64,000 nt of DNA from Thermodesulfobacteriota bacterium (GTDB taxonomy: Bacteria > Desulfobacterota > Desulfobacteria > Desulfobacterales > SURF-7), in contig JBMORA010000017.1 of NCBI GenBank assembly GCA_049320885.1, positions 64,001 to 128,000 of the forward strand, in the 5' to 3' direction. The notes beneath the pieces are model-generated. The model was not told the origin of the DNA, did no database searches, and worked only from the letters and a program-made list of their open reading frames with translations. This document shows, piece after piece, positions 1 to 46,566 of this stretch; the stretch's first letter is position 1; each line of letters opens with the position of its first letter. The translations under genes were made by a program, and so were the position numbers.

Positions 1-786
1 CACTGCCATGATCCGGTTGCCTGCCTTTTCGGCGATGGCGGCGCCCAGGGCGCCCCAGTCAGCCATACCCTTGATGTTGTCGCGGACCTCGTCAGTCAGC
101 TCGACGACGCACTTGGCTGCACGATACTCGTCGAGGTGGGTGCCGTACTTCGGCAGGCAGCCGGTGTACGCGCAGTACACCGTGTTGATGGCGGCTTCCC
201 GGTTGGTCCGGGCGCCCAGGATGGTGTTGATGTAGCAGGCTGCGCTGGACTCGGAGCTGGCGGCATACTCACCCATTTTGGGAATGCGGGTGTTAAAGTA
301 GGGGTTACACGAGAGCCAGGGAAGCCAGCCATGCTCCATCAGCTTGTCGTACCCCGCCTGGAAGCCATCGACCATTTCCTTGTCGAGTCTGAAGTTTCCT
401 TTACCCGGAATCTCGAAGTTCCATGGTTTTCCGTTCGGCGGTCCCAGGATCTCGCTGGCCTTGTCCAACTGGCACATGTAGGGATCGTTGCCGCACTCGG
501 TGCCGGATTCGTCGTGGACATGCGCGTCCTTCATCGCGAAGATCGGATCGTAGAGCGGGCTGTGTCCCAAATCGTATTCATTGAGCTTCGCCAGTCTCTT
601 CGGCTCCAGACGATCCTTCACATAGATGGGACAGCAGTTGAGCGTGAGGACAAGATCCACCATTTCCGTTGCTTCCACCGCTTTGCCGAAGTCCAAGAGC
701 TTGTCCATGCAGAACTGTTTGGCTTCGCCATGTTTGCCATCCAGCATTTCCTGTTGGTACGTCGTAAGTTTCATTTTTGCTTTCAT
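1..786 (-). CDS. Aconitase X catalytic (large) subunit, DUF521; 3' end runs off the window
   Basis: Absent from the ORF track; translated by hand from ATG at 786 (upstream AGGGAG RBS): MKAKMKLTTYQQEMLDGKHGEAKQFCM...WLSCNPY...SSESSAACYINTILGARTNRE...CAYTGCLPKYGTHLDEYR, matching AcnX motifs (MxLTxxxxxMLxG, xCxPY, ESSA...LGARTNRE). Lies next to the DUF126 gene. Confidence 0.9.
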   Translation of the reverse strand, partial: MKAKMKLTTYQQEMLDGKHGEAKQFCMDKLLDFGKAVEATEMVDLVLTLNCCPIYVKDRLEPKRLAKLNEYDLGHSPLYDPIFAMKDAHVHDESGTECGNDPYMCQLDKASEILGPPNGKPWNFEIPGKGNFRLDKEMVDGFQAGYDKLMEHGWLPWLSCNPYFNTRIPKMGEYAASSESSAACYINTILGARTNREAAINTVYCAYTGCLPKYGTHLDEYRAAKCVVELTDEVRDNIKGMADWGALGAAIAEKAGNRIMAV

Positions 787-833
787 CGTTTTCTCCCTAT
801 TTATCTTCTTGTCGTTTAATTCGTTGGAAAAGA

Positions 834-1271
834 TTACCCTTTGCGGGTAATTGTTACAGTGGCTTTCTCACCGACTTCGGGCGCGTCGATCTCAACCCAG
901 TCGCCGGTTCTGATGGTCGTGATCGGGTCCTGGTCCAATTTGTCCACGGCGGGAATTTCACCGGCGATGGCGCCGTTGATATCGATAAAATGAACCTCCT
1001 GGCAGATGAGGCCTGCGGGGCCGTGGTTGGAGACCTTGCACTTGTAGTACAGGCTGAAGGCCCCGCTGGTGGAGCCGGCCGTCGTGGGATAGACGAAGAT
1101 CTTGCCGGTCACGATTTGGCCTTTAGTGTCAGCGCCTGGCGCCATAACCATGCCGTCCTCGTTGCCGACGTGGTTGAACGCCCATCCGATCCGCTGGCGA
1201 TTCACCAACGCTTCGCCTGCCGCTTTTCCTTTAGACCGGGCGATGCCGGTTAAAACGATTTTTTGTTCCAT
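834..1271 (-). CDS. Aconitase X swivel (small) subunit, DUF126
   Basis: GKAAGEALV, GKIFVYPTTAGSTSG (GST with the catalytic-type Ser), GPAGLI, IPAVD, IRTGDWVEID. Start moved to ATG 1271, which follows an AAGGAG RBS. Confidence 0.9.
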   Translation of the reverse strand: MEQKIVLTGIARSKGKAAGEALVNRQRIGWAFNHVGNEDGMVMAPGADTKGQIVTGKIFVYPTTAGSTSGAFSLYYKCKVSNHGPAGLICQEVHFIDINGAIAGEIPAVDKLDQDPITTIRTGDWVEIDAPEVGEKATVTITRKG

Positions 1272-1423
1272 AATATACTTCTCCTTTACTGTTTGGCGCC
1301 GCTTCCTGGGCAGGGAATGCAGCACATATGTTTTTCCCCGGGGACCGTCCCTGAGTCATCGGGAGCCCTCAAAAAATCGGATAATCCGATCAATCGCTTC
1401 ATCGTTTACAGCCCTCTCTCAAC

Positions 1424-3940
1424 TCAGCCCATGTTCTCTTCCGTCCGGGCGATGATTTCGGCCTGCTGTGAGGGTGACAGGTCGGTGAAATACGCGCAGT
1501 AGCCGGCAACCCGCACGACCAGATCCCGGTACTTTTCCGGGTTCTTCTGTGCGTCCAGCAGGGATTGTCTATTGAGGATATTGAACTGGATGTGGGCATG
1601 CTTCTGGCTGCTCCAGACGCGGATAAGCTGCATGAGCCGGCGCGTCCCTTCCTCTCCGGCCACGTTGGCCGGCGCCATCTTCATGTTGAGCAGGTCTTCC
1701 CGATGCGTTTTGTAGATCTGGCAGGTCGCCCTGGCGATGGACTGGAGGGTCACCGTGGGCCCCTTGGTGTCGCAGCCGTGGGAGGGAACGATGCCATCGG
1801 ATAGATATTCTCCGCCTCTCCGGCCGTTCGGCGTGGCCATGGTCACCCTGCCGGACGGGTTATGAAAGGTGATCGGAATGATGCGCATGTTGGCGCTCTG
1901 GCCATGGGGCCTGGGATGGTTGTGGGCATACTCCATAACGGTTCGCTGGATGTGGTAGCCGATGGTGTCCACCCATTCGATGCCGTTGCCGTACTTGGGG
2001 GCATTGAGGCACATCTGACGAATGGCCTCCATGCCTTCCCAGTCGCACTCCAGGGCATCGAGGAGCTGGCCCCATGTGAGTTTCTTCGTGTCGAAAATGA
2101 GATGCTTGATGGCAGCCAGGGAATCGATGCAGGTCGCGAACCCTCCGAGCCCGTCGATGCAGGAAGCATCCAGCGCCCCCGGGATGTAATCACCGTGGGT
2201 GTGGAGGTCCCGGCCGTGCTCCATGCACAGGTCATGGAGCGTGGAGGCTAGCGGCGCCGCGATATACTTGGGCTTCTGCGCGACCGCTATGTAGTTCTGG
2301 ATCATGATGTGCTTGACGACGTTCTCGAGCTGCATCTTGTAGGCATTCCACACGTCGTCGTAGGTCTTGAACGTCCGCGGATCACCCGTCTTCAGGCCGA
2401 ATTGCTCGTCCTTGTAGATTTTCATCCTGCCGTCCCGGAGCGTCATCTCCATGACCGCGCCGTAATTGATGCCGCCATTGCCGGTCTTGTGGGTCTCGCG
2501 GTTGGGCAGGCGCGATTCCGAGCACCCGGACATGGCGTAATCCAGGGCTTCCCGTTTCACGATCCCGTTGCTCATGAACCACGGCACCTCGAACTCGTCG
2601 TTGATCAGTTTGGGCGAACCCTTGCCGTCCTTGATGGTCTCGGCCACCGCATGCAGGAACTTGTCGGGCGTACCGGCGTGGATCCGGACCCCCAGCTCCG
2701 GGTAGCTGCACTTGAGCGGCCGGGTGGATTCCAGGATCAGGTAAGAGAGTTCGTTAGTGGCGTCGAAACCGTCGGGGGTCTGGCCGCCGATGGTCACCGT
2801 CTCGTGATGGGAGAATCCCTCGCGGCCCTTGGCTGCGGATGGCGACATTTGCGACTCGATGCTCTGCATGATGTGCAGCCAGAGGCACTGGAACAGCTCC
2901 TGGGCCGCTTCCGGCGTGATCCGGCCTTCTTCGAGGTCCTTTTTATAGGTGGGATAGAGATACTGGTCCATCCGGCCCTGATTGACTTGCCCTCCGACCA
3001 TCTCCTCCAGACGCGAGAAAAGCTGGGTGAACCACTGGGCCTGGACCGCTTCCCGGAAGGTGCGCGCCGGGTTCTTCGGAACCCAGGCGCAGACGGCCGC
3101 GATCTCCGCCAATTCCTTCTTGCGCTGGGCATTCGTCTCCTTGGCTGCCATCGCGGCGGCCAATTCGGAGTATCGTTTGGCGAAGAGGCTTAATGCGTCG
3201 CAGGTGATGATGGCCGCTTCGTAGAAGGGCTTCTTGAAAGCCAGGTCGCGCGGATCTTCCAGCGCGGCCAACCGCGCCTGGGCTTCCGCGCGCAGACCCT
3301 TACAGCCGCGCTTCAGCATTTTCTCAAAATCAGGGACCCAGTTCTGGGAATGTCGCATGGTTGAAGTGGAAATGATCACGAACGAAAACGTGGTCCCGAC
3401 ATTCTCGGGGTCAGAACCCCAGAACAAGTGTCGGGTTTCAGGAGGCAGGGCCTTGATGAAGTTTGGGGTAAAGTCCTTGCCTTTCCAATAAGGGAAAAGA
3501 ACCTCGTCAATGATCTTCTTGTCTTCCTCAGTCACGGTAACGGCGTCCGGGGCTCCGGCCTCTTTGGCCGCAATGAACGCTTTTGCTCCCTCTTGGATGA
3601 TCGTGCCGTCAAGCTCCGGGTAAACCAGCGAGTACCGTCCGAACCAGGCGCAGGGCCGGCCCACGATCAGCTCATCGTCGAAGATGGCGACCGAGATCTT
3701 TTCCGCGATGTGTTGCAGGGCTTTGGCCCAGCGCCAGACCAGCGGCTGACCTTCCGTGGCCTTGAAAGACTCCGTGAAGTATACTGCCCGTTCCAGGGCG
3801 ACCCGGGGCGGACCGGAGGAACGAATGGCGTCAAACATTCTGAGAACCCGGTCGGTGGCGGTTCCATGCAATACGTTTTTGCCGTCGGCAATGGCCTGTT
3901 CCTGTGCGGAAAGCACAGATGCAATGTGTTCATTTGTCAT
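1424..3940 (-). CDS. Glycyl radical enzyme (eliminase type), related to isethionate sulfite-lyase IslA but with a divergent active site
   Basis: 838 aa; Gly-radical loop VRVAGY; Cys loop SGCSE; TIGGQTPDG-DATNELSYL; ATPNGR; HIQFN; AAGGAG RBS. Confidence 0.95.
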   Translation of the reverse strand: MTNEHIASVLSAQEQAIADGKNVLHGTATDRVLRMFDAIRSSGPPRVALERAVYFTESFKATEGQPLVWRWAKALQHIAEKISVAIFDDELIVGRPCAWFGRYSLVYPELDGTIIQEGAKAFIAAKEAGAPDAVTVTEEDKKIIDEVLFPYWKGKDFTPNFIKALPPETRHLFWGSDPENVGTTFSFVIISTSTMRHSQNWVPDFEKMLKRGCKGLRAEAQARLAALEDPRDLAFKKPFYEAAIITCDALSLFAKRYSELAAAMAAKETNAQRKKELAEIAAVCAWVPKNPARTFREAVQAQWFTQLFSRLEEMVGGQVNQGRMDQYLYPTYKKDLEEGRITPEAAQELFQCLWLHIMQSIESQMSPSAAKGREGFSHHETVTIGGQTPDGFDATNELSYLILESTRPLKCSYPELGVRIHAGTPDKFLHAVAETIKDGKGSPKLINDEFEVPWFMSNGIVKREALDYAMSGCSESRLPNRETHKTGNGGINYGAVMEMTLRDGRMKIYKDEQFGLKTGDPRTFKTYDDVWNAYKMQLENVVKHIMIQNYIAVAQKPKYIAAPLASTLHDLCMEHGRDLHTHGDYIPGALDASCIDGLGGFATCIDSLAAIKHLIFDTKKLTWGQLLDALECDWEGMEAIRQMCLNAPKYGNGIEWVDTIGYHIQRTVMEYAHNHPRPHGQSANMRIIPITFHNPSGRVTMATPNGRRGGEYLSDGIVPSHGCDTKGPTVTLQSIARATCQIYKTHREDLLNMKMAPANVAGEEGTRRLMQLIRVWSSQKHAHIQFNILNRQSLLDAQKNPEKYRDLVVRVAGYCAYFTDLSPSQQAEIIARTEENMG

Positions 3941-4033
3941 GGTCGCTTTTGCTCCTTACTATTTTATAAGATCATGATTCAAATAGGTATCCACGCTTTT
4001 TGCTTGCAAAACGGCGCTGAATCTGATTTCCGG

Positions 4034-4435
4034 TCACGACACTCCGTCCATATCCGGCGAAATGTATTTCCGGCCCTCGAGCACTTCGCGGAAAGCCGGA
4101 ATCAAATCAATCGCTGCTCTTCGTTTCAAAACGTAGCCTTCGACTCCTGCGGCCATCACCTCGTCTATTACTGATTGATCATCGTAGAGGCTAAGGATAA
4201 TGATTTTTATTCTAGGAAACTTTTTTTTCAGGGCCCATGCAATGTTTGTTTCCTCTGAATGTGAAAGCGACTGGTCAACCACCACCACATCGGGATGGTG
4301 GGTCTCCAAGGCATGGTAGAGCGACATTTCGTCGGAAACCATTAAAACCGTCTTGACCTCATTTTCAAGAAGTCGGTATATGCCTCCCAACATATTTGTA
4401 TGTTTATCAGCGAGAATAACACGGCTTTTTCGCAT
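4034..4435 (-). CDS. Stand-alone NarL-type receiver domain protein (no HTH)
   Basis: RVILADKH...PDVVVVD...IIILS...AGVEGYVLK...YISP then stop. Start taken at ATG 4435 (GAAGG upstream). Confidence 0.85.
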   Translation of the reverse strand: MRKSRVILADKHTNMLGGIYRLLENEVKTVLMVSDEMSLYHALETHHPDVVVVDQSLSHSEETNIAWALKKKFPRIKIIILSLYDDQSVIDEVMAAGVEGYVLKRRAAIDLIPAFREVLEGRKYISPDMDGVS

Positions 4436-4520
4436 ACGCTTTTTACCTTCAATCGGGCAATCCGGGGCAATCAATTTGTGGAATGATGGTCAGGCTATAG
4501 AAAAGGCGATAATAAAACAA

Positions 4521-4559
4521 CTGGGAAAATTACTGGTCCAGGGCTGGGAAATTACTGGT
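4521..4559. promoter_or_regulatory. Tandem direct repeat CTGGGAAA(A)TTACTGGT, putative response-regulator binding site
   Basis: ctgggaaaattactggt at 4521-4537 and ctgggaaattactggt at 4544-4559, 23 bp start to start, in the intergenic region upstream of the receiver-GRE-AcnX genes. Confidence 0.6.
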
Positions 4560-4603
4560 ATGGGTCGGAAGGTTTTTTGTCTGCGGCCTGGTAATCTGGC
4601 GCA

Positions 4604-5245
4604 TTATACGGCGGCAATGCCTTGTTTCACAGCATACTGGATCAATTCGGAACTGGTCTTGATACCGAGTCGTTCCATCATTTTGTATTTGTGAAATTCA
4701 ACAGTCTTTGTTGAAATATCCAAAACGGATGCGATTTCTTTCGCAGACTTCCCTTCAACCAAGAGTTGTAAAACCTCCCGTTGCCGGGGACTTATCTCTT
4801 TCAAACGAATATTATCCGGTGACAACCCTTTCTGATAGGCGTGGATAAGGTCTCCTGCAATCAGGGGAGTTATATACGTTTTCCCTTTCATTGCTTCATG
4901 GATCGCGGAAACCAACTCGGATGGGGCCGAGTGTTTCAAGACGAACCCGCAAGCGCCTGCCTCAAAAGCACTAGCTGCATAGGTTACGTCCGGGTGCATG
5001 GTTAAAAATACAATCTTGATGCTTTTATCGGTTTTTTTAATCTGGCGCACTGCTTCGATTCCATTGAGCTGGGGCATCGAGATATCCGCCACGATCACAT
5101 CAGGATGGAGGGCGGCTGCCTGTTTGACGAGGGCTCGCCCATCCTGCACTGTTCCGACAATTTCAAACTCGCCTTCCAGAAGGCTTTTTAACCCCATGAG
5201 CACGAAGTAATGATCATCCGCTAATAGAACACGTGCCTTTTTCAT
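4604..5245 (-). CDS. NarL/LuxR-family DNA-binding response regulator
   Basis: LLADDH, DISMPQLNG, C-terminal ISPRQREVLQLLVEGKSAKEIA...KTVEFHK HTH. Confidence 0.95.
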   Translation of the reverse strand: MKKARVLLADDHYFVLMGLKSLLEGEFEIVGTVQDGRALVKQAAALHPDVIVADISMPQLNGIEAVRQIKKTDKSIKIVFLTMHPDVTYAASAFEAGACGFVLKHSAPSELVSAIHEAMKGKTYITPLIAGDLIHAYQKGLSPDNIRLKEISPRQREVLQLLVEGKSAKEIASVLDISTKTVEFHKYKMMERLGIKTSSELIQYAVKQGIAAV

Positions 5246-8082
5246 TCTCCCTCCTTCATCAACCCCTGTAGGGGCACCCTGACGGTGATCCGGGTTCCTT
5301 TTCCCGGTTGGGAGTTGATGGAATGTTCTCCTTGGAAAAGTCTGACCCGTTCACGAATACTCGAGAGTCCCAGGCCCGGTTTTGCTTTTACCACCGCCGA
5401 ATCGAATCCAATGCCATCGTCCTGAATAGATAATAAAATGTCATGATCATTACCCGTTAAGGAAATAGAAATATGCTCGGCGCAGGCATGTTTGGAAATG
5501 TTGCTTAGCCCCTCCTGAATCATTCGGTATAATGACAGAGAAATATCTTTAGGGATAACCGAATGGATGTTCTCATGACGGAAGACGACTTCTGTTCCTT
5601 CTCTTTTCGAAAAATTCGTGCATTGCGATTCGATTGCCCTGATTAACCCCAGATCATCCAAGATGGATGGGTGAAGTCGGCGCGAGAGGTTATGGACATC
5701 TCCAGAGATTTTAACCATATCATGTTTCATTTCACTAAGCATTACCTGAACAGAGGCTGGTTGATCCTTCAACTCTAATTCGAGTCTTCCGATGTTAATT
5801 GCAAAGACCGCCAAACGTTGCACCAAATCATCATGGAGTTCACGGGCCAAGCGGCTCCGTTCCTCCTCCTGATTGTGAATCAATCTCCCGGCAAGCAACC
5901 GGAGCTCCTTTTCACTCTGTAGCAGTATCTCATCACTTTTACGAGTTGCCTCAATCACTTGCTTGCGTTCTATTGCATTGGCAAACAGATTGCTGATGAG
6001 TCGAAACCGCTGCAGCAAATGCCTCGGCCAGACCCGCTCCTTAGTGATCGACACAAGGGCGCATGATCCCAAGGTCTTGTGCCCAGCTATCAGGGGCATG
6101 GAAAGAAACGATTTCATACCCTTGGTCAAGCAAAGTCGCCGTTCATTTTGTGCTTCCGGCGGAAAATCATTTACCCGGTTTATCACCACCGTATTCCCTT
6201 GAATCAATTGCTCCATGTACCAAGGCAGTTGTTCGGCCAACAGCAATTTCGGGGCGGGTTCGACCTCTGCCAAATGATAATCAAAGGCTAGAACAAGCTG
6301 AGTTTGGTCCTCGGTAAATATTCCGATGCTGCATCTATCCGCTTTAAAAAATTCGGTGAAGCCCCGGAGCCACTTATTGATTTCGCTGTCGACAGCATCG
6401 ATGGAAAGGTTCATGAAATGACTTAATAGTTCGGAAATCATGCGTTCAAACAGTAACTGCTCTGCCAAGTTCTCCTCGGCCAGTTTACGCTTGGTGATGT
6501 CTTCCAGAAATCCACTATAGTAGAGCGTTTTGCCGTCCGGATCGCATACCTTACGGCCGCTGAGCGATGCCCAAATTCTCGTTCCATCCTGCCGCAGCAT
6601 TTGGCACTCAAAACCATGCACAACATCCTGCTTTTCAATCAACTCCATAAACTCCAAACGCTTATCCGGGTCTGCATATACCTGATTCCCTACATTTCGG
6701 ATTTTCGCAATCAACTCGCCGGGTGAATCATATCCAAGGGTATTCGCCAGGGCGGGGTTAACCGTCAGAGGCTGACCTTGCGTCGAGGTTTCAAAGAGAC
6801 CTTCTACGGCGCCGTCGAAAATGTTTCGGTACTTTTCTACCGCTTTTCTGAGTGAGTCCTCGGCCGATTTCTTCCGGCGCCTCTGGACAACAAGAAAAAT
6901 AATCAGGGCGCTTTCCACCAGACAGAAGCCTATAACCCCAATAATGTAATACTGGAAGTCATAAAAGGTGGACTGCTTATTTTTGATGATGCTCTCCTCG
7001 GGTAAATCGTTTTCGTTCAGGTCCCAATGCCTGAGCTGCGACCAGTCGAATATCGGTATGGGAGGGACATCCAGAATGGCCTGGGTATTTTCTGAAACCC
7101 GGGTGCCTCCAAGGATTTTCAGAACCATTTGGCCCGCATGAACACCGGTTTGTTCAAAGTTTATGAGACGGCCTCCCACCATCACGTCTGATAGATTGTA
7201 GTCGATAAGCCCGAAGATCGGGGCTGCGGAAACCTGGCGCAGCCGTTTAAGCACTATCGGGTTTGTGTAGTTTTTCCCGGTAACATCCTGGGTATACGTC
7301 AAGAAAAGGATAATGGAGTGGGGGGGCACGCTGGATACCATTGCCAGAACATCCTCGAAGGCCAGGTGGCTCAAGTAGATAAACTCCAGCCGGCTCTCCC
7401 ATTTCTTCAAATCGGCTCGAGCCTGCGCTTCTATAGCTCGGTCGACTTCGTGGGCGCCGCCCACCATATAGACTCGTTTTGCCCCCGGAACCAGCTTTAG
7501 CGCAACCTCAAGCGTGCCGGTGATATTTAACCTGGAGAGATGCCGGATGATGCGGGGGTCGGTCCCTGGCACCCCTTGGTTTTGCGGCAGGTACAAGGCA
7601 AGAATGGGGACATGGGGAAGGACATCCTGGCAATCCTTCAGTACGAATTCCAAAGCTTCCGGATACATGGTTATGATCATGTCGAGCTTGCGACGGCCGT
7701 AACGCGCGCGCATCTGCTCGACCAAAAGTTTTCTATACTCGGCGCCGGGGTTCTGCCTCAGATTAAGGGATTCGAAAAACTGATTCAGGCTGGATATCCC
7801 GCCGGACTCCAGCGTTTCCGCGAGTCCCTTGTCGGTCCCCCAAAAAACGGGTGCGTTGGCTTCATGAGAATGCAGGACCAGAATGTTTTTCCCAGCCAGA
7901 CCTGCAGTAGCCTGTATCTGGGCAAAGGCCTGGCCGGCGCCTGGCCTGAAGGCTATCAGGAGGAAAAAACATAAAACAGAATAAACCGTTGTCACTCTGA
8001 TTCGGTGAGCGTGCGGCATTTCTATGAATAAGGCATTGCTGTTCATGACCTGATCTATCCAAGAAATAGTCTTGCATGTCAA
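5242..8082 (-). CDS. Membrane sensor histidine kinase (periplasmic substrate-binding-like domain, PAS, GAF, HisKA_3, HATPase)
   Basis: EEERSRLARELHDDLVQ H-box, QEGLSNISKHA, DDGIGF, GLGL; TM segment YYIIGVIGFCLVESALIIFLVV; overlaps the regulator start (ATGA). Start codon uncertain. Confidence 0.92.
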   Translation of the reverse strand: MTCKTISWIDQVMNSNALFIEMPHAHRIRVTTVYSVLCFFLLIAFRPGAGQAFAQIQATAGLAGKNILVLHSHEANAPVFWGTDKGLAETLESGGISSLNQFFESLNLRQNPGAEYRKLLVEQMRARYGRRKLDMIITMYPEALEFVLKDCQDVLPHVPILALYLPQNQGVPGTDPRIIRHLSRLNITGTLEVALKLVPGAKRVYMVGGAHEVDRAIEAQARADLKKWESRLEFIYLSHLAFEDVLAMVSSVPPHSIILFLTYTQDVTGKNYTNPIVLKRLRQVSAAPIFGLIDYNLSDVMVGGRLINFEQTGVHAGQMVLKILGGTRVSENTQAILDVPPIPIFDWSQLRHWDLNENDLPEESIIKNKQSTFYDFQYYIIGVIGFCLVESALIIFLVVQRRRKKSAEDSLRKAVEKYRNIFDGAVEGLFETSTQGQPLTVNPALANTLGYDSPGELIAKIRNVGNQVYADPDKRLEFMELIEKQDVVHGFECQMLRQDGTRIWASLSGRKVCDPDGKTLYYSGFLEDITKRKLAEENLAEQLLFERMISELLSHFMNLSIDAVDSEINKWLRGFTEFFKADRCSIGIFTEDQTQLVLAFDYHLAEVEPAPKLLLAEQLPWYMEQLIQGNTVVINRVNDFPPEAQNERRLCLTKGMKSFLSMPLIAGHKTLGSCALVSITKERVWPRHLLQRFRLISNLFANAIERKQVIEATRKSDEILLQSEKELRLLAGRLIHNQEEERSRLARELHDDLVQRLAVFAINIGRLELELKDQPASVQVMLSEMKHDMVKISGDVHNLSRRLHPSILDDLGLIRAIESQCTNFSKREGTEVVFRHENIHSVIPKDISLSLYRMIQEGLSNISKHACAEHISISLTGNDHDILLSIQDDGIGFDSAVVKAKPGLGLSSIRERVRLFQGEHSINSQPGKGTRITVRVPLQGLMKEGE

Positions 8083-8093
8083 GTTTCAACGAT

Positions 8094-11000
8094 TCAGCGT
8101 TCTTTCGATCCGGACGAGGGGGAACGGAGCCATTTCCGGAGCGACTTGCCCGGGGTAAATCTGTCAACCATTTTGGACGGCAGTGAAATGGTCTGCTTGA
8201 TCAGATTCCGCAAATACTGCTTATCGTTTTCCAGGGGCCCTCCCTTATGAAAAGCCACCGCGGGTTTGCCGATGGTTCCGGTCAGCCGGATGGGGATCAA
8301 TACGAGACCTTTCTCGCCGCCGCCGAGGTCTTTTCCCACCAGGGGAATGGTGGTGACAACCGAATCAATGGATTTGAACGGTTTTGCATACACGATCAAA
8401 TCCAGGGAGTTATCGCTCAATCCGATGGAACCCTTGATAAAAAAGTCCAGGCCGTCTCCCAGGATGAAGGCTTCCCGGATATGACAGCGGTCGCCGGAAA
8501 TGTCGCCGGTCAGCTTCATGTGGGAATACGGATATCCTTCGGCGAAAATATTGCGGATTTTGGATTTGGAAAACAGGTCGGTGACATTGATGAGGGTGAA
8601 AATTTTCGACAGGGCGGGCATCTGATGCAACACCCCGTTTTCAGCCGACACGGTGACATGACCGTTTTCCCATTTGCCGGGCAGGCCCGTGAGTCGGGCG
8701 TCCAGGGTGCATTGGCCGGTCACATATTTCTGCTCAAGGCCCATGCAGGCAAGCAATTCCCGTATATCCCGCGGGGCCGGCCTGCCGGCTGAAATATTGA
8801 TCAGCAGCGGGTCCGGCGGTTTCTTCAGGACACCTGTGGTGGAAACGCCGCAGATGGTTCCTTCGGTGACGGCGACGGAGGCTTTTCCATCCGGCAGCAG
8901 GGCGATTTTCCCGCGCAGAGCGTCCCACACCAACGGCCGGCCGCCAAGGGAGTTTTCCGGGTTTTCCGGCGTGACCTCGAATTGCGCCAGATCGAAAGCG
9001 ATGGAACCGGCAATGGTTGGCCCGGACGATGCGGTGGATCCCGTGGCAGCCCCCGGGGCCGGGTTTCCGGGCGACGGCTCCCCACCGGCATATTTTTCCG
9101 TAAACGCTCGATACAGTCGTAAGAGGTTGCCGGTGGAGAGAAACGGCGAACCAACGGCCAGATCGGTGGTGAAACCGTTGCCGGACAGGGAAACCAATCC
9201 GTCGGCCGTGACGGTCTCCTCATTGAGCGAAAGGGACGCGTTTTTGATTTCCACAAACGCATCATGGCCGATGAGTTCGGCGCGGTTGACGGCCACGCGC
9301 TGATCGCCGGCATGCACCGCAAAGCCCTGGATCCTGGATTCGCCTTTCCAATAACTGGTTTCCGGCCGGTTGAAAACATACTTGAGCTGGAAATCGCCGG
9401 TGATGTTGCCGGAAAGCAGCTTGTTCTCTTCCAGAACCATGGAAACGGTATCCTGCCGGAGGTTTCCCGCAAAACCGATATCCACGCTGGGCGCGGGGGC
9501 TTGTTCAAAAACAGCCCATAGGGTCGCGCTTTCCTCCGGTCGGGTGACGGAAAGTTTCCGGATGGTGAGGGTCTTGTTTTTGTATTCCAGATCGAGGCCG
9601 GTTTTGATTTCCATTCGGCGGGAGACCGGCGTGACCATGTCGGCTGCCAGCGCGATTCCGGTTTTGTCCAAGGCAATGGTAAGGCGTGAAAACCGGCAGG
9701 GCGTTCTGGGGAAAAACTGCGGGGGCAGCCAGTTTTTGTGTTTGATCCATTGGGCGAGCTGCGCTTCCACATTTCCCTGCATGGCGAGGTCGCCGTTGAA
9801 CTGCTGCCAGGAATCGTGCTTCAGGTCCATGCTGACGAGCCACCGCTGGTTTGCGAGACCGATATTTGCCCGGGAAACGCGGATGCGCCGGTCTCCGACC
9901 TGCGCGGAGAGATCCGTCAGCCGGGCGGGTCCGGGCAGATAGGGGGTGTCGATGTCCAGTTCGTCGCCGGCGAAACCGGCTTCATATTTCCAGTCCGCTG
10001 GCCTTGCGATGGTCCCCATGAATCCTGCGCTACGCACGCGGACCAGTCCCCGGATGGAACGCACCATGGCCGGCAGATGTTCCTGAACGGCCGGCCAGGT
10101 AAGGAGTTCCCTGTACAAGGCCTCGGTCTGGATGTCGGCATCCGCTTTTTTCACCTCCAGCCGGAGGCCGTCCTGCCAGGAAACGGTTCCGTCGGTATGA
10201 TGAATGACATGGGGCCCCAGGGCTGCGTTCACCTGGCTCCAGGAAAAGGCGCCGGGATAAAATTCCAGCGTGCCTTTCTTGATGCTCACCGGATGCTGAA
10301 GACGCCGGTAGACCAGGCGGCTGTTGGACTCGGAAACCAGGACCCTGACGGCCGGCTGCCGCAGCGTATCGCCGATGCTCAGCCGGGCTCTGGCGCGTCC
10401 GCCGGCGTCGTCGATGCGGCCGAGCTCGTCCACGACGGCGGGGTTGTTTTTCAGGATATGGTTTTTAAGGAGGTCCGGCAACTCGGCGATGTCGGCATCG
10501 ATGTCCAGGTCAAGATGAAAGGCGCGATCCTCGCCGAGGAGTCCGAGCCGCAGGGCGCCGTTCCGGCCGAAGGAATTGCCGAGCGTGGCGGACAGGTTCG
10601 CCCCGGTCAGCACCGCGTTTTCGATTGTTATCGGCCCGCTGGCATCCACGAGATCCAGGTCGACCCCCGGAACCTGAACGACGGCGTTTTCGGCCAGGGC
10701 CGTTATCCGCATCCTGCTCAATTTTTTAAAATCCGCCGTATATCCCTGGAAGGCGAATCCCCCGCTTTTCGCGCGGCCGCCCCGGACAATGCCGCAGACC
10801 AGCCCGGCAACCCGGTGGTTTGCGAATACCGAAAGGACCTTCTCCCTTGCCGCGGTGAGATCGATGCCCTCACCCTGGATATCCAGGGTCCAGAATTTCC
10901 CGCTGCGGCCGCCAGCCTCCGTATCCCGGTTTTCCAGGCGGACGGCCGCGGTCAGTCTTTCGATGAAGGGGAGCCGGCAGGCGCCGCGGATATCCACCGC

Positions 11001-11531
11001 GGCCGGGTCGACGGCGACCGTGGCGTCCAGCGCCGCTATTTCCAGCGGCGGGTCCTGACCGGCCAGGCCTGAGAGAAAACCGTCGGACGGCAGAACGATG
11101 CGGCCGTTCCGCACGGTTATGGCCATGCCGGGCAGCGCTTGTTTCCGTTCGGGGCCGGCCGGTTTTTTCCTGGCTGGTTTTTTCCCAAGGGTTTTGATGC
11201 AAAGGGCGGGGGATTGCAGCGTCACCTCGAATGGCGGCCGCCCCGGCGGCGAACCCCAGAGATGATAGCGAGCGGATGCTTCCGGAATGTCTACTGCCAT
11301 CATGTCATTGGATACCCGGACCGCTTCCAGGTCCAGATGCGGTGAGGGCAGCCAGGCCAGCGACGCCGTTTTCACTTGGCAATGCCCGCCAAGAGCCGCA
11401 CCCAGGAAGGCGGTGATCCGGTCCCGCACCGGCGCAAGGGTCAGCAGGCGGGGCGTCGCGAAGCCAAGCAGGGCGATGATCAGCAGGCAGACGGCTGCCG
11501 GAATCAGCATTATTTTGCAGAATCGAACCAT
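8094..11531 (-). CDS. AsmA-like/YhdP-type large periplasmic protein (putative lipid-transport bridge)
   Basis: 1145 aa; N-terminal TM anchor; long beta-rich body; C-terminal AsmA_2-like segment (GSIGLSDNSLDL...PFKSIDSVVTTIPLVG...IPIRLTGTIGKP). Confidence 0.75.
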   Translation of the reverse strand: MVRFCKIMLIPAAVCLLIIALLGFATPRLLTLAPVRDRITAFLGAALGGHCQVKTASLAWLPSPHLDLEAVRVSNDMMAVDIPEASARYHLWGSPPGRPPFEVTLQSPALCIKTLGKKPARKKPAGPERKQALPGMAITVRNGRIVLPSDGFLSGLAGQDPPLEIAALDATVAVDPAAVDIRGACRLPFIERLTAAVRLENRDTEAGGRSGKFWTLDIQGEGIDLTAAREKVLSVFANHRVAGLVCGIVRGGRAKSGGFAFQGYTADFKKLSRMRITALAENAVVQVPGVDLDLVDASGPITIENAVLTGANLSATLGNSFGRNGALRLGLLGEDRAFHLDLDIDADIAELPDLLKNHILKNNPAVVDELGRIDDAGGRARARLSIGDTLRQPAVRVLVSESNSRLVYRRLQHPVSIKKGTLEFYPGAFSWSQVNAALGPHVIHHTDGTVSWQDGLRLEVKKADADIQTEALYRELLTWPAVQEHLPAMVRSIRGLVRVRSAGFMGTIARPADWKYEAGFAGDELDIDTPYLPGPARLTDLSAQVGDRRIRVSRANIGLANQRWLVSMDLKHDSWQQFNGDLAMQGNVEAQLAQWIKHKNWLPPQFFPRTPCRFSRLTIALDKTGIALAADMVTPVSRRMEIKTGLDLEYKNKTLTIRKLSVTRPEESATLWAVFEQAPAPSVDIGFAGNLRQDTVSMVLEENKLLSGNITGDFQLKYVFNRPETSYWKGESRIQGFAVHAGDQRVAVNRAELIGHDAFVEIKNASLSLNEETVTADGLVSLSGNGFTTDLAVGSPFLSTGNLLRLYRAFTEKYAGGEPSPGNPAPGAATGSTASSGPTIAGSIAFDLAQFEVTPENPENSLGGRPLVWDALRGKIALLPDGKASVAVTEGTICGVSTTGVLKKPPDPLLINISAGRPAPRDIRELLACMGLEQKYVTGQCTLDARLTGLPGKWENGHVTVSAENGVLHQMPALSKIFTLINVTDLFSKSKIRNIFAEGYPYSHMKLTGDISGDRCHIREAFILGDGLDFFIKGSIGLSDNSLDLIVYAKPFKSIDSVVTTIPLVGKDLGGGEKGLVLIPIRLTGTIGKPAVAFHKGGPLENDKQYLRNLIKQTISLPSKMVDRFTPGKSLRKWLRSPSSGSKER

Positions 11532-36174: not shown

Positions 36175-36578
36175 GCGTCCGTGAGATCGTTGAGGAGCAA
36201 AAAGGAAGAAACCGTAATGCACAGCAGCTCGGCGTCGGAATGGCTGATAAATTCCTCCAGATGGGGATGAGCGCCGATCAACGCGGCTCGAACCCGGCGC
36301 CGCTTATCCGGATCGGGAATCTGGCAAAAGCGGCCCTCCACCGTCAGGGCCTGGATATCCTTTCCGGCAAGGCCCCGGGAGTCGATCAACAGGCTGACAT
36401 GGGGGTTTTGGGTCAGGTTCCTGTATTTCCGTGTGTTTTTATGGGTAACCAGGTAGATTTCCCGGCAGGCGTCATCCACTGCATAAGCCATCAGCGAGCA
36501 ATGGGGGCGGTTGTCGGCCGAAGTGGCCAGCACGCATTGGCTGTTCCGCCGGATCAGGTCTTGGATTTGGTCGATCAT
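36153..36578 (-). CDS. Pyridoxamine 5'-phosphate oxidase-like FMN-binding protein
   Basis: CVLATS...PHCSLMAY, TRKYRNLTQNPHVSLLIDSR. Confidence 0.88.
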   Translation of the reverse strand: MIDQIQDLIRRNSQCVLATSADNRPHCSLMAYAVDDACREIYLVTHKNTRKYRNLTQNPHVSLLIDSRGLAGKDIQALTVEGRFCQIPDPDKRRRVRAALIGAHPHLEEFISHSDAELLCITVSSFLLLNDLTDAHFISVS

Positions 36579-38590
36579 GGTCTGTCTTTCATTTCAGGTT
36601 GAAAAGGGGTCGGCAGGGAAGGGTTTCCCGGCCGGCTGAGGACAAGCTGCAAATCCCCCAACACCCGTTTTTCGAAACCGGCTTGGCAGATGGACAGGTA
36701 GTAGTTCCATTTGCGCTGAAAGGTGCTGTCGAAACCGAGCCTGGAAACGGACTCCCGGTTCGCCAGGAATCGCCGCCGCCAATCCGCGAGCGTCCGGGCG
36801 TAATGGATGCCGATGTTTTCGGCGTGCTCGATCACAAAGCGGGAATGGCGGGACATGGCCCGGGACAATACCGTCAGGGAGGGCAGCAAGCCTCCGGGGA
36901 AGATGTGCTTCTGAATCCAGTCCCGCTCCCGGCGGTACTGATCATATTGGAAGTCCGGGATGGTGATGGTTTGGAGCACCAGCAGGCCCGCGGGTTTCAG
37001 CAGTTGTTCGCAAACGCCGAAAAAACGACCGAAATTCTCATGGCCCACCGCTTCCAGCATTTCGATGGAAACGATTTTATCGAACCGGCCCTCCATCCGC
37101 CGGTAATCCCGCAGCAGGATGCGGATTTGATCCGAAAGTCCTTCCTCCTGCACCCGGCGGACGGCGTAATCATGCTGGGCCTTTGAAACCGTAATGCCCG
37201 TGACCCGGCAGCCGCTGAGGCGGGCCGCTTCTATGGCGAAGCTCCCCCAGCCGCAACCGATCTCCAGCACATGATCTCCGGCTTGAATGCGGGCCTTTTC
37301 CATGAGGTTTCGCAGTTTGTTGCACTGGGCATCCTCCAGGCTTTCCTCCGGGGACTGGTACCGGGCGCAGGAATACACCATGGTGTCGCCCAGAAACAGG
37401 CGGTAGAAATCGTTGCTCAGGTCGTAGTGGTCGCGGATGTTTTTCCGGCTGCCGGTAAGGGTGTTGCGGCGGGTGACATGGTCGCTTCGCTCCTTCAGCC
37501 GGAAAAACAGGGCGGTGGCGAAATTCCCGTCGGCGAGCGCGTCCCGGTTGTCGATGAGCACCTTGAATACTTTCACCAGATCCGGGCTGTCCCATTCGCC
37601 GGCCGTATAGGCTTCGCCCAGCCCGATATCACCGCCGGTAAGGGCCGTGCGGGAAAAAAACCGGTAGTCCCGGATATCCATGCGGGCCGCTTCGGCGGTC
37701 ATGGGGCCAAGCCGCAACTCCCCGCCGTCGGGCATCCGCAGGATAAGGCTTCCCGAATTGATGCGCCGGAGAATCCCCAGGATGATGCGCATGCAGAGGC
37801 GTTGCAGCGCCGTTGGCGGCAGAACGCGGATGGTCATGGGGCTTCGCGGAACGGGTTTGTCATGAAAGCTCATTTTTTTGTGAAAGTACAGCCGGAAAGC
37901 CTCCCGGTAAATCCGTGGTATGCTCAGATGGGGCCTTGCCGGATATCGGACCAGGGTTTTCAGCAGCTGCAAGGGGGTCAGCGGCTGGAAATCACCGCTG
38001 AGCCTGGCGAAAAAAACCATGCAACCTCGGCGAAACAACTGGATCTGGATATCCAGTTTTTCCCGGATATCCGCGAAACGGAAACGGTATTCACCATCCA
38101 CCGGGTTGAAGGGTGACACATGGAATTCCTTGGGGGTTGAAAACACCAGGCAGCCGTCGGTATCCCGGGCCAGGGGATCCGTGAGGATGTACAGATGGCG
38201 TTCCCCATAGGTGTTGTTGACTTCCGCCAGGACGCAGACCGGATCACCTCCCGGGGCATGACAGAAATAAAAACTAACCGGATTGAAGACATAATTCCAG
38301 TACCGGGCCGCGGTGACGAGCACGATATCCCCGATGGCCGCCGTGACGCCGCGGGATGCCAGGTGACGCAGCAGTTTCGTCCGGATGTCGCCTTCCCCAT
38401 GGTCGAGATAATCACGGTCGTTGATCCTCACCGGCCGGAACCGGTTGTGCCCGAACAGGAAATTGGTTCGGTCCAGGGTTTCCAGTTCCGACAGATGCAG
38501 GGCATAGACATAAATGGGATAGGAAAAGGAGTGTTCCCGGGGCGCCAGACGGCGATGGGTGACCTTGCCGATGCAGATTCTGGATTTCAT
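36575..38590 (-). CDS. DUF1365 fused to cyclopropane-fatty-acyl-phospholipid synthase-like methyltransferase
   Basis: N-terminal VTHRRLAPREHSFSY, YVFNPVSFYFC, AEVNNTYGERH, KEFHVSPF; C-terminal GLGEAY, HYDLSNDFY, VLEIGCGWGS, SIEMLEAVG, IFPGG. One continuous ORF. Confidence 0.93.
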   Translation of the reverse strand: MKSRICIGKVTHRRLAPREHSFSYPIYVYALHLSELETLDRTNFLFGHNRFRPVRINDRDYLDHGEGDIRTKLLRHLASRGVTAAIGDIVLVTAARYWNYVFNPVSFYFCHAPGGDPVCVLAEVNNTYGERHLYILTDPLARDTDGCLVFSTPKEFHVSPFNPVDGEYRFRFADIREKLDIQIQLFRRGCMVFFARLSGDFQPLTPLQLLKTLVRYPARPHLSIPRIYREAFRLYFHKKMSFHDKPVPRSPMTIRVLPPTALQRLCMRIILGILRRINSGSLILRMPDGGELRLGPMTAEAARMDIRDYRFFSRTALTGGDIGLGEAYTAGEWDSPDLVKVFKVLIDNRDALADGNFATALFFRLKERSDHVTRRNTLTGSRKNIRDHYDLSNDFYRLFLGDTMVYSCARYQSPEESLEDAQCNKLRNLMEKARIQAGDHVLEIGCGWGSFAIEAARLSGCRVTGITVSKAQHDYAVRRVQEEGLSDQIRILLRDYRRMEGRFDKIVSIEMLEAVGHENFGRFFGVCEQLLKPAGLLVLQTITIPDFQYDQYRRERDWIQKHIFPGGLLPSLTVLSRAMSRHSRFVIEHAENIGIHYARTLADWRRRFLANRESVSRLGFDSTFQRKWNYYLSICQAGFEKRVLGDLQLVLSRPGNPSLPTPFQPEMKDRP

Positions 38591-39843
38591 AGATCGATCC
38601 CGAACTGCCTGGCCACCGCGACCCCCGAGCGGATGCCGTCCTCGTGGAAGCCGTAGCCGAAATAACTGCCGCAGAAATAGGTGTTCCGCCGGCCGTTCAG
38701 ACCGGGCAGCTCTGTTTGGGTGGCGTAGGATTCAAAGGTGTATACCGGATGGGTATAGGTCATCTCCCGCACAATCCGGGAGGAGGGGATGGCCTGGCGG
38801 GGGTTGAGGGTGACGAAATACTGGCGCCGGCAGGTCAGCCGCTGGAGCCGGTTCATATGATAGGTCACGGTGATGGGTGCGGAATCCGGATCCCCGTCTC
38901 CCCGCAGGTAATTCCAGGAGGCCCAGGCCCGTCTCTGGGGCGGCATCAGGGAGTCGTCCGTGTGAAGCAGGGTGTGATTTCGCGAGTAGCGCCAGGGAGA
39001 CAGCAGCCGGGTTTCCACAGGATCCGGGTCCGCCAGCATGCCGTAGGCTTCATCCGCGTGGGCGGCGATCACCACCCGGTCGAAGGCGGCCTCTTCCCCA
39101 TCCGTGAATCGGATGATGACGCCGGTCTCATTGCGCTGGATGCGCTTCACGCCCTTGCCGGTGGCGACACGGCCTTGAAAGGATTGCAGAAACGCCTTGA
39201 CATAGGCGTGACTGCCGCCCTTGATGAAAAACCAGGGGGGATGGCCGCTGACGGCCAGCAGGCCGTGGTTGTCGTAGAACCGGGCGAAATTGCGCATGGG
39301 GAACCGGAGCATCATGTCGTCCGGAGCGGACCAGATGGCCGCCGCCATGGGGATGACAAAACGGCGGACCACATCCCGGTCGCAACCCTCCTGTTGCAGG
39401 AATTCCCCCAGGGTGACATCGCCGATGGCGCCGGCATGATGGGCCCGGCGTGTGCGGCGGATAAAACGGGTGATGCCGAAAACGAATTTCCAGTAATCCG
39501 GACGCAGCAGATTGAGGCGCTGGGCGAACAGGCTGTTCAGGTCGGTGCTGGCGTAGGCCAGTCCCGATGACGGTGAATAGTAGCCGAAGGACATATCCGT
39601 CTGGCGACACTCCACGTTTAGCTGGGCCAGGAAGCGCAGCAGCAGCGGATATGTTCGCTGGTTCAGGACGATAAAACCCGTATCCACCGGAGTGCCCTGG
39701 TCGGGTCCATCCGGAATGACCACCGTGTGGGTGTGGCCGCCGACATAGTCGTTTTTTTCAAAAAGGCTGACCTCGTGTTGTTGTTGCAGCAGGTGGGCGG
39801 CCGAGATGCCGGAGATGCCGCTTCCCACGACAGCGATGCGCAT
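38587..39843 (-). CDS. FAD-dependent oxidoreductase (COG2907/UfaD-like)
   Basis: IAVVGSGISG, GGHTHT, VDTGFIV, AAIWS, AWASWNY, GYGFHEDG. Confidence 0.92.
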   Translation of the reverse strand: MRIAVVGSGISGISAAHLLQQQHEVSLFEKNDYVGGHTHTVVIPDGPDQGTPVDTGFIVLNQRTYPLLLRFLAQLNVECRQTDMSFGYYSPSSGLAYASTDLNSLFAQRLNLLRPDYWKFVFGITRFIRRTRRAHHAGAIGDVTLGEFLQQEGCDRDVVRRFVIPMAAAIWSAPDDMMLRFPMRNFARFYDNHGLLAVSGHPPWFFIKGGSHAYVKAFLQSFQGRVATGKGVKRIQRNETGVIIRFTDGEEAAFDRVVIAAHADEAYGMLADPDPVETRLLSPWRYSRNHTLLHTDDSLMPPQRRAWASWNYLRGDGDPDSAPITVTYHMNRLQRLTCRRQYFVTLNPRQAIPSSRIVREMTYTHPVYTFESYATQTELPGLNGRRNTYFCGSYFGYGFHEDGIRSGVAVARQFGIDL

Positions 39844-40008
39844 GTTTCAGTCCCTTCATGAGACGATTGGGTTGCAGAGATCGCCGGTTTGGCGTATGGT
39901 ATGGGCATTTCATATCCAAAAACCGTCGGCCTGTCAAAACAAACCGGCCCCGGGATGCGAAAAAAAAGGTGCGCGCAGACTCCTACCCACCGGCGCTGAG
40001 GAACCGCC

Positions 40009-40788
40009 ATGACAATTCCGACGATTTTTCTTTCCCATGGTCCGCCGTCCATCCTGTTGAGGGATGATCCGAGCGTCCGGTTTTGGCGGTCCCTGGGAGC
40101 TTCCATGCCGCGTCCCAGGGCGGTTGTCTGTATTTCCGCTCACTGGGAAACGGTCAGGCCGATGCTGACATCCAATGCCCGGCCCGGCATCCTTTACGAT
40201 TTTTCAGGACCGCCTCCGCTGTTTTCGCGGGCGTATCCGGCTACCGGTGATCCGAAATTGGCGGAAAGCATTCGGGAAGCCCTGGCAGCGGCAGGATTTG
40301 ATACCGCTCTTGATGCATCACGGGGCTTGGACCACGGTGTCTGGGTGCCCGTTTCCCAGATGTTTCCGCAAGCCGATATTCCGGTGATACAACTTGCCTT
40401 GCAGACCGAGCTCAGTCCGCGGCATCATTATGCGTTGGGTCGGTCCCTGGGCCCGCTCCGCGACGAAGGGGTTTTGATTCTGGGCAGCGGCGGCGCTGTC
40501 CACAACCTGGACGAGATCCATGCCTTCGCCGTTCACGACACCCCGCCGGATTATGCCCTGGCTTTTGAAGCATGGCTGGAAACCGCAATCTCGGACGATG
40601 ACGTCGACGCCCTCCTGGACTACCGGAAACAGGCGCCCTCACCCGACCGCTGTCATCCCTATCCGGCCGAACATTTGCTGCCGCTGTTTGTCTGTCTGGG
40701 GGCTGGAAATCGGTTGGGCCCGGGGCGACGCCTGCACCAGGGTTTCCTGTATGGGGTGCTTTCCATGGCGGCATACAGCTGGCCATGA
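40009..40788 (+). CDS. Class III extradiol dioxygenase (4,5-DOPA dioxygenase/YgiD-like)
   Basis: SHGPP, ISAHWE, RGLDHGVWVP, GSGGAVHNL, HPYPAEHLLPL. Confidence 0.92.
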   Translation: MTIPTIFLSHGPPSILLRDDPSVRFWRSLGASMPRPRAVVCISAHWETVRPMLTSNARPGILYDFSGPPPLFSRAYPATGDPKLAESIREALAAAGFDTALDASRGLDHGVWVPVSQMFPQADIPVIQLALQTELSPRHHYALGRSLGPLRDEGVLILGSGGAVHNLDEIHAFAVHDTPPDYALAFEAWLETAISDDDVDALLDYRKQAPSPDRCHPYPAEHLLPLFVCLGAGNRLGPGRRLHQGFLYGVLSMAAYSWP

Positions 40789-40929
40789 AGTCCAACGGGG
40801 CCTCGATCCTATAAGTTAGTAGTATTTTCCTACCAAAAATACCCTGAAATGCCATTATTGAAAGGGGGCGGATCGTCCCCATAATGATTACAGGATGATT
40901 GCCGACGATTCAATGAAAGGAACGGGCCC

Positions 40930-42333: not shown

Positions 42334-42334
42334 C

Positions 42335-42916
42335 ATGAAGAACTGGAAACCGCTGTTGTTGATCGCCGGGGTGCTGATGATGGGCCTATGCACACCGCAC
42401 CCTTCGGCCGCGCGGGAGCCGGAAGTGGCCGGAACCCGTTTTCAGGCGATCTATGAACACAAGGATGCGCGTCTGGAACTGAAAGGTGCTTCCCTGCTGC
42501 GTTATCTGACCTTTATCAAGGCCTATACCGGAGCGTTTTACCTGCCGCCGACCACGGATGGCGTAAGGGCCCTGGAAGACGTACCCAAACGCCTGGAGCT
42601 GGAATATCGCCTGGCCATAGCGGCCGAGGATTTTGCCCGGGCCACCACGGTCAGCATCCGCAAAAACGTTGACGCGCAACGCTTTCGGCAGCTTGATCCG
42701 AGAATTCGGCAGTTGAACGCCATGTACCGGAGTGTCGTGGCCGGCGACCGCTATGCCCTGACCTATGTTCCCGGACACGGGACCGAGCTTTCCCTCAACG
42801 GCGTTCCCCTGGGGGTTGTCCCCGGCGCGGATTTCGCGGCGGCGGTGTTCTCGATATGGATCGGCCCGGAGCCCATCGACACGGTCTTCCGGAATGAACT
42901 CCTGGGGCTGAAATGA
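42335..42916 (+). CDS. Chalcone-isomerase-like periplasmic protein
   Basis: Signal peptide; LKGASLLRY..FIKAYTGAFYL, GDRYALTY.PG.GT, FAAAVFSIWIG; GGAGG RBS before ATG 42335. Confidence 0.85.
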   Translation: MKNWKPLLLIAGVLMMGLCTPHPSAAREPEVAGTRFQAIYEHKDARLELKGASLLRYLTFIKAYTGAFYLPPTTDGVRALEDVPKRLELEYRLAIAAEDFARATTVSIRKNVDAQRFRQLDPRIRQLNAMYRSVVAGDRYALTYVPGHGTELSLNGVPLGVVPGADFAAAVFSIWIGPEPIDTVFRNELLGLK

Positions 42917-46565: not shown

Positions 46566-46566
46566 G

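Follow-up and report, generated by a model that had tools for sequence, protein, structure and literature searches.

What reaction would join a glycyl radical enzyme (GRE) resembling the C-S lyases IslA and HpsG to an aconitase X (AcnX)? The question is raised by a 64,000-nucleotide stretch of a Thermodesulfobacteriota contig (JBMORA010000017.1; G000:C17:64001-128000), hereafter the window. At its beginning a GRE gene (1424..3940, minus strand; 838 aa, PF02901 and PF01228) is followed on the same strand by the gene of the small, swivel AcnX subunit (834..1271, minus strand; DUF126, PF01989, 145 aa from the ATG at 1271) and by the 5' part of the gene of the type II large subunit (1..786, minus strand; DUF521), which is cut by the window edge. 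Further operon DNA was read from the adjoining part of the contig, where the whole large-subunit gene (G000:C17:64786-63296, 496 aa) ends 705 bases past the edge. All three genes are intact, and they lie where an earlier note made from the sequence alone had put them, in series on one strand. Our analysis tentatively favours a radical elimination of sulfite from a hydroxy-sulfo-carboxylate such as 3-hydroxy-4-sulfobutanoate, a reading predicted from residues and gene content to which we would give slightly less than even weight.

By sequence and by fold alike, the closest solved relatives of the window GRE are IseG, HpsG and IslA. Its predicted model (pLDDT 87.9) matches them in Foldseek with TM-scores of 0.91-0.94 at 44-46% identity, which falls below the level of about 60% identity or more at which IslA, IseG and HpsG cluster in a published network (PMC6453916). 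The alignment to IslA (7KQ3) bears out the colinear backbone described in the earlier note, with the glycine, the Cys-x-Glu and both anion-binding arginines kept, and all five motif pairs quoted there agree with it. The C-S lyase pocket is described as Arg189, Gln193, Arg678, Cys468 and Glu470 (PMC8473560, PMC6453916, PMC13450708), the two arginines being the published sulfonate ligands (PMC6453916, PMC8473560). The window GRE retains Gly813, Cys473-x-Glu475, Arg196 (IslA Arg189) and Arg686 (IslA Arg678), and these five residues are invariant in all 146 full-length sequences on which our pocket counts of the clade rest. The clade has four subclades that differ in pocket, namely A (the window's own, n=82), B (n=29), C (n=20) and D (n=15). 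Subclades A and B are near-identical at the sites examined, with Gln318 being Asp throughout B, and the site of Trp374, a conserved residue of IslA, is His379 in 111/111 of their sequences; in C and D this site is Phe, and a third arginine discussed below, R373, is missing.

Does the enzyme then belong to IslA or HpsG? In a FastTree of 52 sequences (23 of 150 representatives plus selected homologues, with the genome-derived IslA/HpsG-type proteins L061 and L062, not PDB sequences, standing in for IslA and HpsG), the proteins with the motif RxSQNW form one clade with support 1.0 in the IslA/HpsG superclade, separate from L061 and L062. The best NCBIfam match is the HpsG model NF048011, with a score of 991.7 against a cut-off of 1000. 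The sister subclades exceed this cut-off with 1013-1079, compared with 1557 for L061 and 1498 for L062, so the model has to be taken as loose. Since three features fail, the glutamine, the tryptophan and the clustering, we do not assign the GRE to either enzyme. It is an uncharacterised IslA-like GRE with a different pocket, as had been claimed, and it does not cluster in any characterised group with an identical pocket. The host genome holds five further GREs, 27-33% identical to this one. More uncharacterised GRE subclades with distinct pockets occur in the same superclade (L069, L070, L071; P0090, P0073, P0121-P0133), several of which exceed the HpsG cut-off and would be misnamed HpsG.

A further change in the pocket is R373, which is invariant in subclades A and B (111/111). 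In a stretch of the alignment free of local gaps it falls on IslA Asn368 and on Phe333 of glycerol dehydratase, the latter correspondence being counted along the printed alignment. In HypD the place of this glycerol dehydratase Phe is taken by Ser334, which binds the carboxylate of the substrate and is essential, whereas IslA-type enzymes occupy the space with a Phe of a different strand (PMC7077986). In the window clade the site of that Phe, Phe682 of IslA, is Ile or Val (690). R373 would then be a second anion site, for a carboxylate.

What can be said of the substrate from the AcnX side? The large subunit keeps the three cluster cysteines of TkAcnX (Cys160, Cys353 and Cys412), and its Glu179, Ser180 and Lys433 match the TkAcnX ligands of the carboxylate and C3-OH of a 3-hydroxy acid, for which both characterised AcnX types use shared residues (PMC8184944). 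In the small subunit, Ser67-Thr68 is aligned to the catalytic Ser-Thr of TkAcnX, with residue roles taken from the same paper. The N-terminal specificity region aligns to neither known enzyme. In phmmer only residues 159-436 align to TkAcnX, leaving unaligned the N-terminal segment that in mevalonate-5-phosphate dehydratase holds the phosphate-binding residues 47-53 and Asn79. On the LhpI model the score is 146 against a cut-off of 700, and the type I Cys-x-Cys ligands of a [2Fe-2S] cluster are lacking, with a single Cys412 and a Leu at the Tyr534/Tyr365 site. From the conserved ligands, the unaligned N-terminus and the failure on LhpI together, we expect the window AcnX to use a 3-hydroxy acid, or the corresponding enoate, that bears a new distal group. 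In addition, two AcnX types only 46-49% alike are found next to GREs that are 89-93% identical (four loci), and both types occur in subclade B as well; such a swap beside near-identical GREs suggests replacement in place under selection. A tblastn search found no second AcnX in the host genome.

Is the association kept in other genomes? We compared loci from GTDB (31) and from metagenomes (25, with the subclade B enzyme of L021 as query). The counts cover those whose DNA reaches 2.3 kb or more past the GRE on its downstream side, the other 23 being excluded as too short or unclassified; all are connected by transfer and do not represent independent samples. On the whole, DUF126 and AcnX are present at 17 of the 20 loci of subclade A, showing that the GRE-AcnX linkage proposed earlier is conserved and not due to chance. 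Among the three exceptions, L028 and L032 (77% identity) have an SDR instead, and L051 has no upstream DNA. The same 20 loci have a PFK-like gene in 17 cases, a GRE activase in 15, a bile-acid:sodium-symporter (BASS) family transporter in 13, the orphan ORF465 in 12, AspT/YidE in 6 and carbonic anhydrase in 3, the last two besides the window's own operon. At the 8 loci of subclade B the neighbours are SDR (7), PFK-like (6), YeiH (5), TauD (3) and BKACE (3), and at the 5 loci of subclade C there are BKACE in 3 and no PFK-like gene. The exporter YeiH, a driver of Salmonella's resistance to sulfite (PMC12880088), stands directly 3' of the GRE at L038-L040, and the TauD neighbours resemble taurine and alkyl-sulfate dioxygenases. 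AcnX is not obligatory, the activase and the PFK-like protein being the more constant partners.

The reverse comparison covered 400 genomes of the host's phylum, in which this AcnX group occurs in two, one of them adjoining the GRE. The other (L073:4608-17000; G289:C50) has no GRE of this clade; its DUF126 and AcnX of the 47% type are clustered with BKACE, a TRAP transporter, 3-hydroxyacyl-CoA dehydrogenase and 2-hydroxyacyl-CoA dehydratase with its activator. This is a setting of enoate, 3-hydroxy acid and 3-oxo acid, which we count in favour of the sulfite elimination, and the cluster looks like a separate uncharacterised anaerobic hydroxy-acid pathway. Some variants of the cassette are worth recording in their own right. 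A subclade B module at L021:379-9879, L034:864-9829 and L063:11378-17899 comprises an AraC regulator, a TauD-family dioxygenase, an MFS gene, DUF126 and AcnX, with YeiH in two of the three. A family III CoA-transferase lies between AcnX and BASS, whole at L065:2154-3656 and as a fragment at L003:16444-17001, and an NfuA-like Fe-S carrier lies in the cassette at two loci (L007:19830-20507 and L031:4200-4982).

Past the window edge the operon includes two genes that bear on activation of the GRE. The radical-SAM activase (G000:C17:59304-58333, minus strand) has CxxxCxxC at residue 38 and a ferredoxin motif, and scores 333.9 on TIGR02494 against a cut-off of 174. It overlaps by 4 bases with a gene (G000:C17:60473-59301, minus strand) whose product is covered over its length by PF00365 and is here called pseudo-PFK after the phosphofructokinases (PFKs). 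The PfkA family, to which the sulfofructose kinase SqiK also belongs, has residues of assigned roles in its GGD motifs, the Asp of xxxIDND and the Arg of MGR. Compared with solved PFKs, the GGD motifs, the catalytic Asp and the MGR arginine are absent in 20/20 locus copies of pseudo-PFK and the His site is altered in 19/20; Glu replaces the catalytic Asp in 120/120 homologues, and the protein stays below every PFK model cut-off shown. At all 23 loci in which both start positions are present, it is encoded immediately before the activase. All six matches of at least 58% in the phylum sample (host included) precede an activase, while the two canonical PFK controls do not. Two of the six accompany GREs only about 30% identical to the window GRE (L072:3894-9999 and L074:7290-12653), and two others accompany subclade D GREs (62%), with PFK and activase 80-83% like the window's. 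Because the same pair stands beside unrelated GREs, the pseudo-PFK belongs with the activase and not with this substrate, and it is probably an activase accessory, not a pathway kinase. A function as the sulfosugar kinase of the pathway is ruled out, since the catalytic motifs are lost and the protein follows activases of unrelated GREs. At L074 there are two pseudo-PFK copies, both frameshifted in the assembly. The observation of the earlier note is confirmed and its interpretation supported in part; what it had left out is the change of Gln193 to Asn200, R373, the change of Trp374 to His379 and the continuation of the operon past the edge.

How would these parts work together? The adjacent activase, whose parts are observed and whose activity is taken from its family, would set the radical on Gly813. 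As the conserved residues suggest, the radical would pass to Cys473, which would take a hydrogen from the carbinol carbon; Glu475 would deprotonate the hydroxyl, and the neighbouring carbon would lose sulfite, in the manner of IslA and HpsG. Judging from the alignment, Arg196 and Arg686 with Asn200 may hold the sulfonate, and Arg373 the carboxylate, with room provided by Ile/Val690 where IslA has Phe682. The [4Fe-4S] AcnX pair may interconvert a 2-enoate and the 3-hydroxy acid cleaved by the GRE, most likely by hydration, which fits better than dehydration. The skeleton that would fit the GRE, AcnX, SDR and BKACE together is X-CH2-CH(OH)-CH2-COO-, giving acetoacetate and sulfite if X is sulfonate. 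The simplest common substrate would be a 3-hydroxy-4-sulfo acid, with 4-sulfocrotonate converted to 3-hydroxy-4-sulfobutanoate and the latter to acetoacetate and sulfite. At loci without AcnX, the SDR, in some of them with BKACE, would give the same hydroxy acid from a 3-oxo acid. For most hosts the gain would be carbon or sulfur, with the sulfite exported, and the present host, which has dsrA, could respire it. That 3-hydroxy-4-sulfobutanoate is the exact substrate we consider rather unlikely; another candidate is an oxidised form of 4-deoxy-4-sulfoerythrose, a sulfoglycolysis intermediate (PMC12890257). Sulfolactate was rejected, as it suits the GRE pocket but leaves AcnX without a role.

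The earlier note had predicted an anionic hydroxy substrate, either sulfonate, phosphate or carboxylate. This prediction is kept and narrowed to a carboxylate with a second anion, because of the third arginine, the 3-hydroxy-acid residues of AcnX and the BKACE neighbours. Sulfonate is favoured as the second anion because of the YeiH and TauD neighbours in the sister subclade B, and sulfite is the likeliest leaving group owing to the C-S lyase ancestry and to YeiH beside the GRE in a subclade of near-identical pocket.

Several observations weigh against sulfite elimination from a sulfo-carboxylate. In the pocket, Gln193, which IslA requires as its third ligand of sulfonate, is changed to Asn200 in the window GRE (Asn in 145/146 sequences of the clade and Asp in 1/146). 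The Arg189 site is not specific for sulfonate, since it is likewise Arg in HypD, where it touches the substrate only via water (PMC8473560). R373 is placed by sequence alignment, its block 371-380 in the model having a pLDDT of 58, and HpsG too has Ile at the Phe682 site. Among the loci, YeiH and TauD are found in 0/20 of the window's own subclade, YeiH is not found in the host genome (98% complete), and where both genes occur YeiH could serve TauD. AcnX is seen in only 2/8 loci of subclade B, a third copy lying 7 kb beyond the edge of L022, and in 0/5 loci of subclade C. In addition, dsrA is present in only 6/30 carrier genomes (completeness not given), and the literature search gave, among the matches listed, no natural source of a C4 hydroxy-sulfo acid.

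Who carries the cassette? Among 40 relatives, two of them in the same genus, none has this GRE subfamily, the four matches being at 45-49%. At the DNA level the GRE gene shares 89-90% identity with copies from genomes titled Verrucomicrobiia, Nitrospira and NC10, and 83-85% with Bacteroidales and cyanobacterial copies. Database names put close GRE proteins in cultured Luteitalea (sp. TBR-22, 87%) and Sphingomonas (S. limnosediminicola, 86%), and a subclade B GRE in Pseudomonas sp. N040. The plain reading is a recent cross-phylum transfer of the cassette, although single metagenome-assembled genomes may be misbinned. In PLSDB, 19 records matched, all below 60% identity, and no member of this GRE clade was found. 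IslA/IseG/HpsG C-S lyases occur mainly in sulfate- and sulfite-reducing bacteria; here, sulfite respiration as the general purpose of the cassette is rejected, given the few carriers with dsrA. With window positions 1-4000 as query, four soil and paddy RNA libraries of three studies gave 1,943 to 11,127 contigs matching the cassette at 85% or more, contigs that represent relatives and are no proof of transcription; 14 RNA or RNA-guess runs and 4 unlabelled runs stand outside this count.

In the leading alternative, which we regard as unlikely and yet serious, a polyanionic hydroxy acid would undergo the same type of radical 1,2-elimination, with a leaving group other than sulfite and a common cell metabolite as substrate under anoxia. 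The group lost could be phosphate, for instance with 3-phosphoglycerate giving pyruvate, or a sulfate ester; water is a further option, with tartrate as an example of a vicinal-diol dicarboxylate that would yield it. Hosts across many phyla at 83-90% DNA identity, 24/30 of them without dsrA, would be in accordance with such a metabolite, and so would the many related contigs in the four RNA libraries. Neither a sulfite exporter nor a dedicated sulfonate uptake system is seen in the close clade, and Gln193 is changed. The PFK-fold partner would suit a sugar-phosphate signal; however, it is uninformative on the substrate, as it also follows activases of GREs about 30% identical. YeiH inside the operon of the subclade with a near-identical pocket speaks for sulfite, and AcnX uses 3-hydroxy acids, a poor fit to the 2-hydroxy acid 3-phosphoglycerate.

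It is improbable that the GRE is a diverged but isofunctional sulfite-lyase of isethionate or 2,3-dihydroxypropane-1-sulfonate (DHPS), with AcnX and the rest as co-travelling cargo of a mobile island. Both arginines and the Cys-x-Glu are retained, the score on the HpsG model comes close to the cut-off and that of the sister subclades lies above it, and the cassette stands among cargo genes that vary freely between loci. On the other side, IslA/HpsG-type proteins reach about 1500 on the same model, the clade is separate with support 1.0, and Gln193, Trp374 and Thr312 are all changed with R373 added. Among the annotated neighbours of the cassette there is no aldehyde/alcohol dehydrogenase, TRAP transporter or microcompartment gene, and AcnX is retained even when exchanged for a distant paralogue. 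It is very doubtful, too, that the GRE decarboxylates or isomerises a di- or tricarboxylate by radical chemistry, under acid or anoxia stress or for a gain of proton-motive energy, together with AspT and carbonic anhydrase: the three arginines might bind carboxylates, genes of a two-component system are found upstream, and AspT/YidE (6/20) and carbonic anhydrase (3/20) occur at close loci besides the window operon, but both are absent from most loci, the decarboxylase models give only 366 (IAD) and 308 (HPAD) against 992 for HpsG, and fold and tree place the GRE among C-S lyases.

Taking sulfite elimination as the basis, a wider picture may be drawn, which as a whole we hold to be doubtful. 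The cassette would be a mobile, anaerobic cross-phylum desulfonation module of soil and sediment, in which AcnX hydrates a sulfo-enoate and the three-arginine GRE converts the product to a keto acid and sulfite, in hosts that mostly do not respire sulfite; the dedicated pseudo-PFK subunit would control the activase by a metabolite signal and be swapped with it as a unit between unrelated GREs.

The remaining genes of the operon lie outside the window on the same, minus strand. ORF465 (G000:C17:63126-61729, equal to L001:13729-15126) follows AcnX and has no Pfam or NCBIfam match. Its conservation is 61-76%, and it occurs solely downstream of AcnX genes whose products are 91% or more like that of the window (12/20 close loci); because of this restriction we treat it as accessory. 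There are weak signs of a class I S-adenosylmethionine methyltransferase fold: the model has a pLDDT of 57, the Foldseek matches are marginal, several being class I methyltransferases (E about 1e-3), and the first atlas match is a cluster named CheR, in which 17% of the members carry the family. MetK lies close to ORF465 in 3 loci. An AI-2E transporter (G000:C17:61651-60545) comes between ORF465 and the pseudo-PFK, and the activase is followed by the AspT/YidE antiporter (G000:C17:58331-56730), the carbonic anhydrase and the BASS transporter (G000:C17:56059-55199).

Upstream of the GRE, also on the minus strand, are a stand-alone receiver-domain protein (4034..4474), probably a regulator, with related proteins clustering in 12/32 loci; a LuxR/NarL-type response regulator (4604..5245) that probably controls the cassette; and a PAS/GAF HisKA_3 sensor kinase (5242..8082), its probable partner, with related kinases clustering in 13/32 loci. 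A promoter and terminator scan of window positions 1-5300 stayed at chance level, the spacer between the GRE and DUF126 genes is no more stably folded than its shuffled versions (z 0.21), and there is no tRNA in the window. Elsewhere, the window of this sulfate-reducer genome holds a fatty acid cis/trans isomerase (PF06934; 11534-13966, minus strand), a membrane-lipid modification cluster (36578-44295) with DUF1365 and a cyclopropane-synthase frame, amine oxidase, SDR, chalcone-isomerase-like and MFS genes, and signalling genes (44421-63906, minus strand) for a CheA-like kinase, hybrid kinases, a CheB/CheR fusion and a chemoreceptor with a hemerythrin domain.

In the literature the cassette is not described, as far as searches pairing GRE with aconitase X, phosphofructokinase or BKACE go (few subscription journals covered); one match dealt with carnitine and choline. 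Among the matches listed for DUF521/DUF126 there is nothing on GREs. PMC12814064 names a GRE only in its references. A 2026 review (PMC13450708) names three C-S lyases, with isethionate or DHPS as substrates, and makes no mention of aconitase or phosphofructokinase. The same review calls activase reconstitution a major bottleneck. The pseudo-PFK, moving with its activase clade between GREs, is a candidate for the missing factor, and a GRE-activation partner of this type was not found in the literature searched. A GRE for a sulfo-carboxylate, if true, would be an anaerobic route of the sulfur cycle outside sulfite respirers and a hint of an unrecognised organosulfur pool, and with it one of the subtypes listed as uncharacterised in PMC8184944 (AcnX IIc-IIf) would acquire a function.

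In comparison with known systems, the window GRE shares with IslA/IseG (7KQ3, 5YMR) the fold, at TM-scores of 0.92-0.94, the colinear backbone, the Gly, the Cys-x-Glu, the equivalents of Arg189 and Arg678 and the same activase group. It differs from them by Gln193 to Asn, Trp374 to His, Thr312 to Gly, Ile192 to Gln, Phe682 to Ile/Val and Asn368 to Arg, by its 44-46% identity and separate clade, by hosts mostly without dsrA, and by its AcnX and pseudo-PFK partners. With HpsG (6LON; NF048011), its best NCBIfam match, it has in common both arginines, the Cys-x-Glu and Ile at the Phe682 site, while it is set apart by 45% identity, Gln187 to Asn, Trp to His and the extra Arg373. The AcnX pair agrees with characterised AcnX in the two-subunit type II layout, the three TkAcnX cluster cysteines, the Glu, Ser and Lys ligands and the small-subunit Ser, and departs from it in the unaligned N-terminal region, in having no second Cys of the type I Cys-x-Cys and in lacking Tyr534/Tyr365. 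Finally, the pseudo-PFK has PF00365 in common with the PfkA phosphofructokinases including SqiK, from which it differs by the lost GGD, by Glu for Asp and by the absence of the MGR Arg.

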